Shown here: positions 8,436 to 62,350 of the stretch, piece after piece
Numbering within the stretch: the first letter of the stretch is position 1
How the letters are laid out: every line of letters starts with the position of its first letter
Source of the DNA: Octopus vulgaris
Taxonomy: Eukaryota
NCBI GenBank assembly: GCA_951406725.2
Contig: OX597834.1
Location: forward strand, 13,082,001-13,146,000
Direction: 5' to 3'
DNA: 64,000 bases
Position numbers and translations under genes: made by a program
Notes under the pieces: generated by a model
Databases searched by the model: none
What the model was told of the DNA's origin: nothing
The model's input: only the letters and a program-made list of their open reading frames with translations

Positions 8436-9105
8436 CACATTGCTTTCTCTTTCTCTAAATATAATACACGCAGAAAGTACTTGCAAATTCAGACAAATCG
8501 TATATATATATATATATATATATATATATATATATATATATATATATATATATATATATGTATGTATGTATGTATATATTATATATATATATATATATAT
8601 ATATATATGATTATATGGATGTATATATTGTTTTCCTCTTTTTTCCATTTCTGTGATATATAGGTTATTTGTGTCTAGGTTAAAGTAGGCATAATAAAAT
8701 ACTTCTGTTCGTTTCTCAGTGCTTTTATGATACCGAACAGCTGTTCCTGCACATAAAGTATTGTGAGAATTTTGGATAACCAATAATCATCCACAATTTT
8801 TTTTATTCATATTTATGTATCTACTATAATTTTTTCTCAAAGATATAGAAGTAAGAGTAGCTTTGTGGTAAGTAGATTGCTTACCAACAACACGGTTCCA
8901 GGGTCAGTCCCACTGCGTGGCACCTTGGTCAATTGTCTTCTGCTATGGCCCACGTCCAACCGAATCCCATATATATATATATATATATATATATATATAT
9001 ACCGGAGTAAACACATAAATGTGAAACAAGGTGGAAAAAAGAGTACTCAAATACCAGTGGTAGAGTAATATGCTTTATGTAAAGCAGCAGAAAATTCAAC
9101 AAAAC

Positions 9106-9143
9106 CTGTTACTCTGAGTTTCCCGTTGCCGTTCATCGGACAG
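9106..9143 (-). ncRNA. Minimal hammerhead ribozyme motif (family E, CCGAUGA core)
   Basis: Minus strand: ctgt CCGATGA a-cg-GCAA-cg-g GAAA ctcagag TA acag. Confidence 0.7.
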
Positions 9144-9159
9144 TTTTTGCTAGCGAAAA

Positions 9160-9197
9160 CTGTCCGATGAACGGTAACGGGAAACTCAGAGTAACAG
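9160..9197 (+). ncRNA. Minimal hammerhead ribozyme motif (family E, CCGAUGA core)
   Basis: ctgt CCGATGA a-cg-GTAA-cg-g GAAA ctcagag TA acag. Stem I is ctgt/acag and loop II is GNRA. Confidence 0.7.
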
Positions 9198-11729
9198 GTT
9201 TTGTTGAATTTTCTGCTGCTTTAAATAAAGTATAGTATATATATATATATATATATATATATACTTTATATATATATATATACTTATATATATATATATA
9301 TATATATATATATATATATATATATATATATATATATGTGTGTGTGTATATGTTTGTTTGCATGTGTTTGTCCCAGAACCCACCATCATTTGACAGCCGA
9401 TGTCGGCGTGTTTACGTCTCCGTGACTTAGCACTTCGTAAAGAAAGAAGAGTGAATCAATTATGTAAAAGTAACCCCCGTAAAATTACGAACTAAGTAGA
9501 TGACTGGATTTCCCCTAAACACTTTAAGGTGGTGCATCAACATGACCGCAATCCAATTCCTGAAACAAGTAAAAAATTTAAACTTAGCGACTTGCTTATA
9601 CATCTATTCTATTCGTATCCACAGTAATTGATATGTACATGTTTATCCATTCCTCAACTTTCTCAGTAGACGGGTACAATTTATATAACTCTTAGAAATG
9701 TTGTTTCAATTTGACCTACGTCTTATCACGAGGAATATTTATCACATCCACTTAACCCTACACAATCAGAACACTTGAAAAATGTATTAAAACTATGTAT
9801 TCTTTTTTCTCTGTATGTTTATGAAATAAGATCATGCAATTATAGATATGCTATGTAATTTCATTTATGCATCAGATAATATTAGAATCTGAAACGTGTT
9901 TTGATATGAATGCGGCGTACGATGTGTAGAGCGTGGTAAAGATAGGAGAATGGTTTTTATGCAACAACTTTTTATTGCAATAACTGAAAATTTAGAGTGA
10001 CATTGCAAACGGAAATTGATTGACAGATGAGATTATTGTTTACATTACTTGTCAAATGAATGTAATGTACATTTGAAAGCGAAGCTGTAAAGTACAGTAT
10101 CAATGACCTGACGGATGTCAATATGATTGTATTTCTTTAATACTATACATGATCGTAATTCACATGAACCATACTTTCAAGTATCATTTTAGAGGCTGTT
10201 ACAAGTAGTTCGCATATCACGTTTCAAATTTCACTCTAAATGAATGTAGTAAAACTATGAATCCCCTTGAAATATAGCTTGTAAAATACAGTATATAAAT
10301 AACGTATTTTAGCTGTGATCCGCGTATATATTGAACTCATATAAAAGCTGTACTGCACAAGACAGCTAAGGTTGTGAATGAAGTGTTTCCTATAAGACTA
10401 ATGAATTATGTATGACAAGATTGACATCACATCAAATAGCAATCCTAAGAACAATACATTACCAAATAAACAATAACCAACACAATTTTTCTTAGCTCTT
10501 TCGCGTTTTCAAAACAAGAAATATCGAATTCAAATTTCGGCAGAAGGCCAGCATCTTCCTACAGAAAGGTAAGTCAATTACATTGAACCCAGTTACCTGC
10601 TGGTACTTAATTTATCGACCTGGATATGATCAAATGCAAAGTGAACGGCAACGGAATATTAATTTAAAACGTGAAGTCAGACGAAATAGGGTTATAAACA
10701 TGAGGTGTATTAAATCCTTCCTCTCGTTCATCACTGACTCTATTACATTTTTAACATATATATATATATATATATATATATATATATATATATATATATA
10801 TATATATATATATATATATATATATATACATATCTATATATATATAATTGTGGGCCGCAATTTTATGGAGTAATTTTATAGAGCAAAAGCATTCCAAATT
10901 TTCGTTACCATGTTATAGGCGATACAATATTTTGTTTCTTTCTTCGCCAACAACGATTATATAAATCCAAACATGTCAGTTAAATTGATAATGTTTAATA
11001 ATGAATTACTTTACAACACCAGTTCCGAAAACGTCTTCAAAGAAAAAAAAAGGATTTAAAATAAATATATTATAATTATCTGCAACGCCAAATTGTCTCT
11101 TACAAGTGGATAATGTGATTGCTCTTATTAGTTTATAAGATTATACATTCCCACTTCAATTACGAAGTAACGTTTAGATGAATCGTTTTTTATTTTTATT
11201 TATACGAGTTAAAGTATCTACATAAATAATAAAAAGCTATTTTACAAACATAGAACAAAAATCTATGAATATAATATTAAGTAGTCTGGTTTGTAATCTA
11301 ACTAGGAAAGGCGTTTAATTAACGCAATAGATGTTCAAAAATAATCCAATTGTAGACTATATATATAGTATTTTAATGAGCATATTTCAAATGCTATGAG
11401 ATATACCAAGTACAAACATACATATATGAGTCGTAGAATTTAGTGAGAATTACGATTATATAAAACTAGTCTTTTTGAAATGTTGCTTCTCTCATACAGA
11501 CTGATCTACTAAACACTACCGTGCGGAGGCAAATTTCTCTGGCTGTTCTTTCTTTGTCAATGCTTGCTGGATAAACATGACTTTCAGTTAACATAATGTA
11601 AAGAAGTAAAATTAAATTTTGAGATTTTTATTTATGCTGTTTATATTAATTTATATTAATAATTATTTTGATATTTTAATATATTAATAATTATTTATAT
11701 TAAATCCATACGTATATATTTTTATATAT

Positions 11730-59621: not shown

Positions 59622-59680
59622 TCTTCGAAACATATGTCGAAGGTAAAAAATATTTATTAACATCTTCGTTAAACTCCATT
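59622..59680 (+). mobile_element. Family F-related 3' fragment (half hammerhead)
   Basis: cttcGAAAcatatgTCgaa...cgttaaactccattt followed by (TA)n. No CUGANGA half upstream. Confidence 0.55.
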
Positions 59681-61069
59681 TATATATATATATATATATA
59701 TATATATATATATATATATATATATATATATGTATTTTATATGTTTATTCAAGTATGTGTGTGTCTACCTCCACATATGTCTATAATTTTTTTTACTATG
59801 TTTCTATTTCAAATAAAACATTCCATCTACGTTGTCAATGGCAATAATACCTTCTCTCGACAAATCGAATGTAAACATATGAATTCTGTTAGAAGCGCCC
59901 GTTCCCAGTTTATCAGATCCATGCGTTTCGGAGGAGAATGTTCTTCTTCGGCATTAAATACCGCAAAGATATATGAATGCGTGTCTGTTCGTGTGTGTGT
60001 ATTTGTATATTATGTGTATGTTTAGAGGTATGTACATTTGATGCGGAGGCATATCTATGTAAGAAGAACGGTTTTAAATCATATACGTTATAATCTAATT
60101 TATAGAGTTATGTTCGTTATGTACTGCCTTATATCCTTTATATCATACCAGGACAACATATAATTATTAATGGCAAATGTGATATCCACAGTTTATTATC
60201 GCTCAGCTCAGAGCAGCAAGACGTATGCACCACTTGGGTGTAATTTAGAACAGTATAGAGACATACAACCATATCAAACACCTTACTAAATAGTTATTGT
60301 TGTATAAAAATTATGTCAGTATCACGAGGGTGTATCTTAATTATAGAATAGCATTTAAAATTAGTATCATATGAGTAGTTGCCTGATAAACAATCTTATA
60401 GATAGCTACAGACAGACAAATAATCAAGTTTATGGAATGACTACGAAGCATCTTATCTGTATGATTAATTCACTGGAAAAATTGAGTTGTTATGGTTTCG
60501 ATATAAATTTGTGTTTTATGAATAAACGGTTTTTGTATGTCATAGGACTTCACTATTCTGTTTTATATATATATATCTACAAATTGTCTGAAAAAGATGT
60601 GTTCTCAGTTGTATTGGTAGGAAGAAGTAGATGACAAATCAAAAGAAGTGAAGACGATCATGAGACTATGAGAGACAGAGGATGGAAAAGAAGAGAACAT
60701 AAAAACAGCAAATATAAGAAATGAAGGAGAAGAAGAAAGAAAGAAGGAAAGAAAGAATGAAAGAAAGAAGGAAAGTGATGTGGCAAATAAAGGGTTGGGC
60801 ATTTGATCGCAACATATATTCATTTCATTTCAAAGAATTTTTAAACATTTGTCTGGATTTCGTTATTCAAACGTCTGTGTAGGGGAGGTTGGTAACGAAT
60901 CCTTTTATCTGACGGAAAATTCCAACTGATGGATACCAAGAGCTGGAGTTTGTTGTAGATAGTTTTGTATCTTGTAGGTCAGCAGTCAACAAGTACGAGT
61001 TCAATAAGCGATCGGGGAATATGATTCTTGGAAGTGAATAGGCTGTTCTGTGTATGACGATGATGTACA

Positions 61070-61414
61070 TATATATATGTATATATATATATATATATAT
61101 ATATATATATATATATATATATATATATATATATATATATATATATATATATATATATATATATATATATATATATATATATATATATATATATATATAT
61201 ATATATATATATATATATATATATATATATATATATATATATATATATATATATATATATATATATATATATATATATATATATATATATATATATATAT
61301 ATATATATATATATATATATATATATATATATATATATATATATATATATATATATATATATATATATATATATATATATATATATATATATATATATAT
61401 ATATATATATATAT
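61070..61414. repeat. Very long (TA)n microsatellite (about 340 bp)
   Basis: Direct reading. Confidence 0.97.
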
Positions 61415-62114
61415 GCCTGTATTTAATATATAAAACAATATTGAATGCATAGGCATAAATAATGTTGTATACGGTTTCGCGGTATAAATACATAAACACT
61501 CACACAAGAGCAAACATGTATACACACACACATACATATATAATAAAACACAAACTTATTGTTTCAAAACTAGTTCAAATAATATATTTCTTTGAACTGT
61601 ATACTGCATTCTATTTTGCGTTTGATTCCATAAATATTGCTTCACATATATTTATGAATTTCGTGCAAAATACTCCTCCGAGTTTTGAATAATTGAATCA
61701 TACAGACGAGCGTGTATCAATTTTATATTTTAACTTTGTTGCAAGTTTCACATCAGTTTTTCCGTTTTTTTCTTCCTTTTTTTTCTGAATACTTTTTATA
61801 CTGAAGATGAACTCCTTTCTATGACACACATGGACGGAAATGAAAGTTTAATATTTCATAATGTACTCCATTTATATGATGATTAATGTAAAATTTCATT
61901 TGCTTTCTCTCTGACCCACATCTCTCCGTTTGTGAGTGAAGATGCCTACACTCCCTCTCGTTCTCTCACTCTCTCTTTTTCCTCCTTCTATGAATGCCTG
62001 TTCTTACGTGCGCGCATGTGTATATGTATAATTATGTGTGTGTATATATATATATATATATATATATATATATATATATATATATATATATATATATATA
62101 TATATATATATATA

Positions 62115-62350
62115 GTTTCGCCATGGGCTCTTAGGAGCCTAGTTCGATTTGTTTTTGCTCCGCCTCTGTTCTGTTTTTGTTTTTTTCCAACGGATTTCCT
62201 ATTTCTTCCTGAAGAGAAAGACACAATATGGTCCCATTATTCAATCGGATTTTGGTAAATTGTGCCTTTCGAAACACGTGTAGAATGAAATAAAACAATT
62301 TCTGTTCAATCTGCGTTCAGCTCCATTTCTTCAATTCACCAATAATATTT
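62115..62350 (+). mobile_element. PLE-type mini-element family I between (TA)n tracts
   Basis: A unique block of about 235 bp bounded by (TA)n on both sides and containing a hammerhead motif. Confidence 0.75.
62201..62291 (+). ncRNA. Hammerhead motif, canonical CUGAAGA core, long stem II
   Basis: atttcttc CTGAAGA gaaagacacaat...attgtgcctttc GAAA cacgtg TA gaa(t)gaaat. Stem II is 11/12 paired and stem III is the palindrome acacgtgt. Confidence 0.8.

Follow-up and report, generated by a model that had tools for sequence, protein, structure and literature searches.

Hammerhead insertions in the window

The stretch of Octopus vulgaris DNA analysed here (the window, 64,000 nucleotides) holds 16 type I hammerhead motifs, whose layout is recognizable at all 16 sites listed by a previous sequence-only reading, together with every palindromic stem III that it had named. 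The motifs group into 11 insertions of eight families (Table 1), which matches the roughly eight distinct elements then proposed. Five of these insertions have a palindromic shape, one of the two arms bearing a tail, as expected of inverted pseudo-LTR structures.

Table 1. Insertions and features of the window, with hammerhead cores and predicted cut sites
Feature	Positions	Strand	Details
Family A insertion 1, Hydra-type parent L274	9002..9234	both	head-to-head palindrome, long arm on -, 67-nt tail; cores 9139 (-) and 9164 (+), U4C variant; cut after 9110 (-) and 9193 (+)
Older family C copy without hammerhead	11757..11963	+	inverted piece precedes; homology from 2 nt before cut site
Family B copy 1	13732..13887	+	core 13767, CUGUAGA with an additional A; cut after 13794
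Family C copy	14326..14526	+	G3-C8 core 14346; UUU triplet ends 14381; 5' end at C hot spot (-56)
Family B' copy, sister of B	32587..32795	+	core CCGACGA at 32663; mismatch adjoining cut site
Family B copy 2	33302..33487	+	core 33371; cut after 33398; 5' end at B hot spot (-94)
Family D insertion, Neptune-type parent L214	33517..34376	both	inverted short arm 33517-33756 (5' end -181) + tailed long arm; U3-A8 cores 33609 (-) and 34257 (+)
Family B copy 3	44612..44824	-	core 44741; cut after 44714
Family E insertion, Neptune-type parent L019/L021	46435..48096	both	1.66-kb palindrome whose arms are 99.4% alike; intact core 46601 (-), core 47892 (+) with mutated stem III; 40-nt tail on right arm
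Family E GIY-YIG endonuclease, last 46-52 codons	47104..47389	both arms	around palindrome centre; tblastn
TATA-like box and CAGTC initiator-like site, E right arm	~47815..47850	+	putative promoter
Family A insertion 2	48747..48970	both	palindrome; intact core 48813 (-), broken core 48834 (+)
Family F insertion, Hydra-type parent L205/L206	49006..49514	both	inverted short arm + long arm, ~130-nt tail; cores 49128 (-) and 49254 (+), canonical, long stem II, GUC triplets; long-arm start at hot spot (-153)
Family G copy, Hydra-type parent L207	62115..62350	+	canonical core 62209; cut after 62282; 5' end ~-168 at CAGTT site

A relaxed type I descriptor (Watson-Crick pair 3-8, Y4 G5 W6, A9, G12-A14, palindromic stem III, an NUH triplet, stem I of at least 3 bp and stem II of at least 2 bp) accepts 13 of the 16 motifs. 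The other three fail as mutated copies: the mismatched core at 32663, the core at 47892 with its single change within stem III, and the core at 48834, in which G12 is missing and stem III is altered. This descriptor returns 14 matches in the window, the additional one (at 51730) being taken as chance, against 0.86 ± 0.79 (maximum 4) in 100 dinucleotide shuffles, the comparison proposed by the sequence-only reading, and 0.97 ± 0.97 (maximum 4) in block shuffles. The strict CUGANGA core occurs four times, against 0.01 in shuffles, and only 4 of the 13 passing motifs carry it. Since the descriptor was drawn up post hoc, with the sites already known, it was re-run on 20 evenly spaced 10-kb stretches of contigs C1-C8, where 12 matches were found against 2.6 ± 1.7 (maximum 7) in 30 shuffles. 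Motif density in the window is some 4-5 times that of the sampled genome (13 in 64 kb versus about 9 net in 200 kb). An Rfam search of the window gave no hammerhead at the gathering score; below threshold, Hammerhead_1 was matched at 49248-49332 with 25.9 bits versus a cut-off of 34.

The reported association with (TA)n is confirmed, as a (TA)n run lies less than 200 nt downstream of the cut site in 16 of 16 motifs, compared with 31% of random positions. The description of the motifs as minimal has to be restricted, given that families F and G, with 54-59 nt from core to GAAA, are not of this type. A large genome-wide radiation had also been suggested, and three families together do account for 27,198 exact motifs; family B alone contributes 15,730, and B and A together more than 22,000.

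Core pair 3-8 covaries by family, being C-G, U-A or G-C. In family C, G3-C8 is kept in 96 of the first 100 matches listed while loop II is variable, and position 7 is free in family B. Many hammerhead variants were reportedly catalogued by Lunse et al. in 2017. When two monomers are cofolded, a double hammerhead is predicted for A, D and E (-9.8, -7.5 and -6.4 kcal/mol over two monomers, respectively), whereas G shows only stem III pairing and B, C and F adopt different folds.

Coding parents of the short copies

The motif-bearing repeats had been regarded as largely non-coding mini-retroelements derived from Penelope-like elements (PLEs). The PLE origin is upheld, and the non-coding reading is not the best one: for seven of the eight families, a long parent has been found with a Penelope-like RT and, at the C terminus, a GIY-YIG endonuclease upstream of the matching hammerhead, so these families represent the terminal 3' UTR/pLTR portion of long elements that encode protein. 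The 1.6-kb palindrome of E itself still codes for the 46 final endonuclease residues. Because such parents exist, the short copies are to be seen as 5'-truncated, often folded-back ends of coding elements. Identity between window copies and parents is 95-100% over the stretches compared. For the remaining family, B', no such parent was found among 12 copies.

The parent of E consists of 4271-bp tandem units with Pfam matches to RVT_1 and GIY-YIG, and the same two domains are matched in D, which shows PLE protein matches at 19 of 25 loci and a full unit at L214. In families A, B, C, F and G, the RT and endonuclease were called by motifs and blastp links, and a Pfam search of the A, G and C ORFs gave no match. 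Family A retains an intact 711-aa ORF between two A pLTRs (L274), while the only B parent is decayed and shows 29-34% identity to the RTs of D and E. ORFs were found in 5/5, 6/6 and 2/3 of the long copies fetched for C, G and F, respectively. Tandem pLTRs occur in E (period 4271), D (hammerheads 4381 apart), G (L210) and A (L274). Target-site duplications are unreadable inside (TA)n, and the preference for (TA)n is itself clear.

According to motifs and comparison by eye, D, E and B appear to be Neptune-type and A, F and G Hydra-type, with C unplaced. E holds KQADKGG and the linker CNDSRCGTC before GIY-YIG, and D holds KEADKGS and CGRPNCGIC in the same position. The A parent shows SDKT and RWK, with a CxFx5C linker where the Hydra clade has CxCX5C; the G parent shows SDKT, RWL in place of RWK and a long insert at the linker, with no CxCX5C motif, and the F parent is 45% identical to it. 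A tree of six of these parents alone separates A and G from D, E, N3 and C, with C on a long branch. Three Neptune-type families share a conserved -1 slippery site, U-UUU-UU(A/U), between two ORFs: it lies where the first ORF, about 410-430 codons long, overlaps the RT frame downstream, which has no ATG. Literature searches brought up no account of such a site in Neptune.

Fixed ends and the origin of the short copies

The 5' ends of E and C were surveyed in copies chosen solely by the sequence downstream of the cut site. Among 41 E matches, 23 are long and 13 of the 18 short ones end at -71 to -82; among 43 C arms, 10 are long and 22 of the 33 short ones end at -53 to -59. Neither pile-up was reached in any of 200,000 uniform simulations. 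Across families, the pile-ups lie 55-180 nt before the cut site, at distances that differ by family. The best 40 candidates per search were scored, which biases the sample to young copies, and the pile-ups of F, G, B and D are less cleanly sampled, as their queries took in upstream sequence.

Promoter-like sequence accompanies several of these ends: TATATATG stands 30 nt before the C pile-up, TATTTATA 32 nt before that of E, and TATAAAG about 28 nt before that of F (seen by eye and missed by the pattern search). For A, B, D and G, the search gave no TATA match with suitable spacing. Short E copies end at the CAGTC site, 79 nt before the cut site, and the E right arm also holds three CCAAT boxes 165-217 nt before it. 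Four of six non-inverted C copies ending at -58 bear an additional G at a position occupied by T in the parent, which might be expected from copying of a cap; this was observed in C only, on a sample of six copies, and not in E.

The 3' ends are fixed as well, at TA-like patches 40-190 nt past the cut site, and two such sites result in an optional tail; in E, the patch reaches up to an internal (TA)6. Regarding the palindromes, the two hammerheads lie on opposite strands and therefore cannot form a dimeric ribozyme, and a transcript through the palindrome is predicted to fold into a single long hairpin with the motif buried. Close pairs of family A belong to one subfamily in 17 of 17 cases, with spacers of 9-66 nt (counted by eye among the first 100 matches listed), and the two main haplotypes are mixed in 0 of 26 palindromes. 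As judged from these copies, both arms are shown to derive from one template.

The preferred reading, to which a probability of about 0.7 is given, is that the repeats are truncated pLTRs of at least seven coding PLE families inserted in (TA)n, the short ones likely being run-off cDNA of uncut RNA. Pol II would start at a fixed point in the pLTR, giving an RNA with the hammerhead, the tail, the ORF(s) and the next pLTR. The endonuclease would nick (TA)n and the nick would prime on a TA-like RNA patch: priming in the first pLTR would yield a run-off cDNA of 150-350 nt, and priming in the last one, the long copies. The cDNA end would then join the target, or fold back and be copied into a palindrome. 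The hammerhead would mostly not have cut by this point and would exert its activity at a different stage, probably in dimeric form, through the two same-strand copies of a tandem transcript. Ends at the cut site are in fact rare, two of 41 E copies (0 and -2, only a hint of NUH cleavage) and the old C copy at 11814, which suggest that some templates may have been cut. The short copies are thus likely stumps of a known element class rather than a new kind of mini-element. Most of them would be dead ends, having lost the promoter elements that lie upstream; against this, the Penelope of Drosophila virilis has an internal TATA-less promoter (PMC2377424), so short copies could be transcribed. Its start site is followed, after 46 bp, by a 75-bp intron that extends to helix I (PMC2377424; PMC4209133, available in part). 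According to the accessible portion of the in vitro work on Poseidon (PMC11167929), the tail is set by internal RT starts, RNA that has not been cut serves as the main substrate and the hammerhead is protein-assisted.

The short copies, especially those of B and A, could instead be self-renewing non-autonomous elements similar to a SINE or a retrozyme, a solo pLTR being transcribed from an internal promoter, or from (TA)n as TATA box, and copied by the enzyme of the parent. Such elements would account for the abundance of B when its parent is decayed and an endonuclease lies upstream at only 1 of 25 loci, for the B head-to-tail runs with a period of about 230 bp (L043, L044), for the 55 A loci with an ORF upstream in none and downstream in one (L103), and for 5' ends that often adjoin (TA)n; moreover, PLE-derived non-autonomous retrozymes have been published (bioRxiv 10.64898/2026.07.22.740005). 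However, short and long copies have the same sequence in E (100% over a 132-nt query) and in C (54 of 60 motifs identical), tandem B units are parted by unequal TA runs, as repeated insertion into (TA)n predicts, and short copies share no common flank, which leaves self-renewal unlikely. A composite proposal, rather improbable as a whole, holds that stumps landing in (TA)n would gain a TATA box 30 nt before the initiator, turning B and A into Pol II SINE-like elements that outrun their parents, that the Neptune RT would be made by the conserved -1 frameshift, and that the G3-C8 and CUGUNGA cores would work.

It has also been considered that hammerheads cut tandem transcripts into units and that a circularised unit serves as RT template, with truncations clustering for another reason, such as an RT-stalling structure. 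This model was proposed in PMC4209133 (in the part available), and it is consistent with the perfect 4271-bp arrays, the predicted double hammerheads, the two E copies ending at the cut site and a public contig of 4301 letters that represents a closed E-unit loop, its end-to-start join being present in all four runs (presumed RNA). Nevertheless, tandem DNA or read-through RNA would equally yield a closed contig, a circle offers no end at 55-180 nt upstream of the cut, the pile-ups sit at promoter-like sequence with family-specific distances, and hammerhead mutants of Poseidon insert in vitro unaffected (PMC11167929, as far as available); a circular template is accordingly judged quite improbable.

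The pile-up sites of C and E resemble 3' splice sites too (YAG after a pyrimidine run), so spliced RNA might have been copied, a tiny first exon being lost or unrecognised. C has CTAAC, a pyrimidine run and TAG at the pile-up, E has a pyrimidine run and CAG, and the D. virilis Penelope intron ends at helix I. This is very unlikely, as the AG or CAG is retained in the copies, which then pass at once into (TA)n or unrelated flank and share no exon, contigs of the four runs presumed RNA show no splice joint on the E unit (weak evidence), and F lacks AG at its pile-up. Finally, MITE-like DNA transposons with TA target sites, their motifs being chance or inherited relics, would fit the palindromic shape and TA flanks and have next to no probability: the arms are head-to-head, their centres vary and their outer ends are unequal, many copies are single-arm, the motifs are far above chance, and continuity with the RT-endonuclease ORFs of the parents refutes this reading.

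Significance and comparison with known systems

The octopus genome combines young intact parents (E tandem units 100% identical, the intact A ORF) with tens of thousands of stumps, which record where the template RNA started and whether it was cut, and thus bear on the role of the hammerhead in the PLE cycle; this record is in line with the in vitro finding of uncut RNA as the substrate. Natural core variants and a candidate frameshift signal are further resources offered by the families. In annotation, such repeats should be filed as PLE ends, and not as MITEs, microRNA hairpins or host ribozymes.

The following comparisons refer to the available parts of the sources. Non-LTR retrozymes (Li et al. 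2026, bioRxiv 10.64898/2026.07.22.740005) are likewise short, non-coding, hammerhead-bearing and PLE-derived, with solo copies scattered over chromosomes as here. In contrast, they consist by definition of tandem hammerhead units, whereas copies in the window stand alone or inverted, and their sequence runs on into coding parents; the window holds no tandem, and tandem runs were seen at only 2 of the 25 B loci.

Hydra-clade PLEs, including Hydra-1_Obim (Craig et al. 2021, PMC8557442), share the single ORF, the (TA)n preference, the hammerhead near the 3' end, DKT for DKG (A, G) and RWK (A). The A hammerhead resembles by eye that of Hydra-2_aMil. An octopus Hydra hammerhead, that of Hydra-1_Obim, was already recorded there and differs from those of A, F and G; unlike the clade, G and F have long low-complexity inserts before the endonuclease and stem II regions of 54-59 nt. 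D, E and a third family (L209) agree with Neptune-clade PLEs in DKG, in the CX4-5CxxC linker that precedes GIY-YIG and in (TA)n targeting; partial tandems, inverted 5' copies and the tail are shared as well. The Fig. 1 legend of PMC8557442 mentions an ORF1 separated by a frameshift, the clade being unnamed in the accessible text, and killifish Neptune has two non-overlapping ORFs (PMC12602865), versus overlapping ones here.

As in Poseidon PAc of Anolis (Frangieh et al. 2024, PMC11167929), two internal RT starts past the hammerhead would define the tail and targets are AT-rich, with uncut RNA as the main substrate in PAc. The PAc start site is not homologous to its target, while the 3' ends described here fall in TA-like RNA patches.

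Minimal hammerheads (min-HHR) in the pLTRs of metazoan PLEs were described by Cervera and De la Pena in 2014 (PMC4209133), and 5'-truncated, folded-back PLE ends are a kind published since then. The 27,198 exact matches of three families exceed the ~2,000-9,000 per genome given there, and two natural variants, the G3-C8 core of C with its UUU triplet and the CUGUNGA core of B with its extra A, do not appear in the part of that paper available, so they may already be in print. In all other respects compared, the octopus motifs follow that description: type I, with palindromic stem III, an extra base between A9 and stem II and a U3-A8 variant, they are mostly solitary motifs ascribed to truncated PLEs, with many families per genome and opposite-strand pairs 100-700 bp apart.

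Hammerhead motifs in the window and across the assembly

At all 16 sites recognized by the sequence-only reading, the parts of a type I hammerhead follow one another as expected: stem I, then the core, stem II, and GAAA, next a palindromic stem III, the NUH, and stem I again; the motifs also outnumber those in shuffled DNA. A relaxed descriptor recovers 13 of the 16 plus one extra site (51730), against 0.86 ± 0.79 matches in 100 shuffles, and the three sites that fail it are single mutated copies; the strict core yields four matches in the window, compared to 0.01 in shuffles. 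Because this descriptor had been fitted to the window sites, it was also run on 200 kb taken in even steps from contigs C1-C8, where it gave 12 matches (2.6 ± 1.7 in shuffles), about 7 of them convincing by eye. According to the counts in this sample, the window is 4-5 times richer in motifs, and the genome-wide total would be, as a rough figure from ~7-9 net motifs in 200 kb of C1-C8 only, of the order of 100,000 (2.80-Gb assembly, 227 contigs). Exact-pattern searches of the genome returned 15,730 matches for family B, 6,835 for A, and 4,633 for C, while the reversed controls returned 0. The sample also holds two hammerhead families beyond those of the window (L234:9748 and L236:7043, 8378), of which one forms an inverted pair whose core is canonical and whose stem III reads ACAATTGT, and the other has a U3-A8 core.

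The window has a G+C content of 33% and 104 runs of (TA)6 or longer. As had been proposed, the motifs lie next to (TA)n, which follows within 200 nt at 16/16 sites (background 31%). By masked self-blast, the 16 sites belong to 11 insertions of 8 families, named A, B, B', C, D, E, F, and G, in agreement with the original count of about eight distinct elements; five of the 11 insertions are head-to-head palindromes. The high local density of motifs arises because different families of Penelope-like elements (PLEs) lie stacked within a single (TA)n run, and such stacks have also been found at the fetched loci L003, L083, L209, L210, and L214. An ORF scan revealed no long ORFs in the window outside repeats. 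The Rfam scan of the window gave nothing at gathering score, the best 150 of 432 E-value matches being microRNA and similar models matched by TA/CA repeats, and the E motif had no match in Rfam.

Other repeats and remnants are collected in the table. The partly inverted, (TA)n-embedded family, which also occurs beside a D copy (L086), holds no hammerhead by the relaxed descriptor and may be one end of another PLE, perhaps a Naiad, a group not known to carry canonical hammerheads. The ~400-bp repeat is presumably SINE-like, judging by its look, and we take the 107-codon frame to resemble the end of a LINE-type protein.

Features of the window and of fetched loci (L-numbers)
Feature	Position	Remark
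Various PLE families stacked in one (TA)n run	48747-49514; 33302-34376; 46185-48129	
(TA)n-embedded, partly inverted repeat family	7056-7339; 37574-37767	
Older PLE remnant	54637-54805	weak Neptune-type protein match
Older PLE remnant	46271-46340	E-like 3' piece (76%)
Older PLE remnants	59063-59126; 59623-59711	two F-like pieces (76%)
Abundant ~400-bp repeat	467-1256; 4753-5152; 6226-6656; 24454-24885; 27363-27778; 54171-54623; 54976-55367; others	internal (CA)/(TA) runs
Second abundant repeat	2701-3107; 29298-29686; 37041-37277; 52649-53241; others	184-bp tandem units
390-bp repeat beginning GGAAGCACTCC	26537-26925; 58615-59005; 59201-59589	three copies 94-95% alike, without hammerhead
107-codon frame	12857-13180	+ strand
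Conserved U-UUU-UU(A/U) slippery site	L021:4458-4548; L214 ~4490-4530; L209	L214 read in reverse

Coding parents and ribozyme cores

The Penelope-like origin ascribed to these hammerheads has been upheld, since the motifs sit in the end repeats (pLTRs) of PLEs, in high number and in several clades. Their description as mini-retroelements holds in part: the hammerhead units are real, but most of them are probably truncated ends of coding elements. E makes up the 3' terminus of a 4271-bp unit, which occurs as perfect tandem arrays and as long inverted pairs and codes for a 430-aa ORF1 and a 775-codon frame with RT, zinc linker, and GIY-YIG, and the last 46 endonuclease codons are still present in the window copy. 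For D, 19/25 loci match the E RT-endonuclease protein, and one of the fetched loci, L214, is a full unit flanked by two hammerheads. RT/endonuclease frames appear in 5/5 long copies fetched for C, 6/6 for G (one of 899 codons), and 2/3 for F; B has a parent at one of 25 loci, decayed, and none was found for B' in 12 copies examined. In L274, the parent of A, the A tail and the A hammerhead occur together with a 1-kb UTR and an intact ORF of 711 aa; of 7999 candidates scored against this ORF, 1073 are related at E <= 1e-20, nearly all of them unnamed, and PDB gave no match. Over 77-831 nt, the copies in the window share 95-100% identity with their own parents. A reading of A as a parentless palindrome of constant length (231 bp), which arose because the whole palindrome had served as query, was rejected when a downstream-only query gave variable centres and then the parent.

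By the motifs given in PMC8557442, A, F, and G are assigned to the Hydra type and D, E, and B to the Neptune type; C, with its short linker, is left unplaced. The supplement of that paper already includes a Hydra element from octopus that bears a hammerhead and prefers (TA)n, and by eye G and A look similar to Hydra-1_Obim, which would fit an octopus host. The G ORF of L207 and the F ORF of L206 carry long low-complexity, partly asparagine-rich inserts between the RT thumb and the endonuclease, across which the frame stays open; comparable inserts are described for rotifer Penelope ORFs (PMC3846280).

Unrelated families have in common only the core and the pairing. Most families (A, B, B', E, F, and G) have C-G at pair 3-8, whereas D has U-A and C has G-C; in C, this pair is kept in 96 of the first 100 matches listed (counted by eye) with a variable loop II. 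The B core has a U at position 6, any of the four bases at position 7, and an extra A after A9; U4C is present in A, B', and E, and in A the loop of stem II is constantly GNRA while the lone base of the stem III loop varies. Both U3-A8 and the extra base have been described for PLE hammerheads (PMC4209133), and an engineered G3-C8 pair gives a partial rescue of activity (PMC11167929). No natural G3-C8 hammerhead was found in the accessible text of the literature searched, and variant catalogues may contain one. When cofolded, A, D, and E are predicted to pair into the double hammerhead; B, C, and F are not. For palindromic insertions, hairpins of -143 to -1437 kcal/mol are predicted, and in the one structure examined, an A palindrome, the motif is paired with its own antisense copy.

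Overlap of ORF1 and the RT frame

In three Neptune-type families, namely E, D, and the one represented by L209, ORF1 and the RT frame overlap in the -1 phase, at U-UUU-UUU in E and U-UUU-UUA in both D and L209. The RT frames of the three share 45-56% identity, and the ORF1 of E and that of D are 28% identical over 322 residues; in a protein atlas search, E ORF1 scored at most 0.84, below evidence level, with mollusc-rich clusters. The E RT frame lacks an early ATG, and its overlap with ORF1 is crossed without gap or splice joint by contigs of four public runs, available as contigs only, from which no starts, ends, or strand are obtainable. No strong structure was found downstream of the E slippery site (-8.1 kcal/mol). 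A programmed -1 frameshift is the likely link between both frames.

Copy ends and mirror arms

Copies end at fixed positions. At the 3' side, each family uses two TA-like patches, hence the tail on one palindrome arm; the outer site of E is an internal (TA)6 directly ahead of the ORF1 start. To map the 5' ends of E and C, given as nucleotides before the predicted cut site, only sequence downstream of this site was used as query. Out of 41 E matches at 100% identity, 28 were fetched and 13 were earlier known as long; 10/28 reach 150 nt or further upstream, and the other 18 are short, of which 13 end at -71 to -82, two at 0 and -2, and three elsewhere. For C, 43 arms from 40 loci comprise 10 long and 33 short ones, 22 of the latter ending at -53 to -59 and 0 nearer the cut site than -10. 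Neither pile-up was reproduced once in 200,000 uniform simulations. The remaining families, sampled less cleanly, pile up at -56 to -43 (A), -100 to -90 (B), -181 to -167 (D), -155 to -145 (F), and -186 to -168 (G).

The E pile-up is a CAGTC site 32 nt downstream of TATTTATA, with three CCAAT boxes farther upstream, and that of C lies 30 nt past the sole TATAWAWR match within 420 nt; F shows TATAAAG plus a CRE site. No TATA-like box was found in the 420 nt scanned in B, D, and G, or by eye in A. A G absent from the parent is carried by 4/6 non-inverted C copies ending at -58 (p ~0.008, hand calculation), and was not seen in E copies. The pile-ups are likely to be transcription starts, and the short copies would be run-off products of RNA with the hammerhead uncut. 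That some templates, a minority, had been cut is suggested by the two copies of E and the one old copy of C that terminate at the cut site. Solo pLTRs of rotifers have been ascribed to recombination or deletion (PMC3846280), and no account of them as run-off products was found in the literature searched.

Among the first 100 A matches listed, 17 close inverted pairs with spacers of 9-66 nt were identified by eye; both arms belong to one subfamily in 17/17, 15 pairs being identical and two one base apart. Likewise, the three-site haplotype is equal in both arms of 23/26 fetched palindromes and differs at one site in 3/26, and the two main haplotypes are mixed in 0/26. This sameness argues that each insertion makes its mirror arm afresh, with one template serving both arms. 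The simplest route would be a cDNA that folds back, and two arms may also result if both target strands prime on a single RNA.

Hammerheads in PLE pLTRs are a class already known, here numerous and spread over several clades; the additions of value are the mapped 5' ends, the variant cores, and the putative frameshift signal. The spacing of the pile-ups resembles that of Penelope from D. virilis, in which, according to PMC2377424 and PMC4209133, the start lies ~120 nt before helix I.
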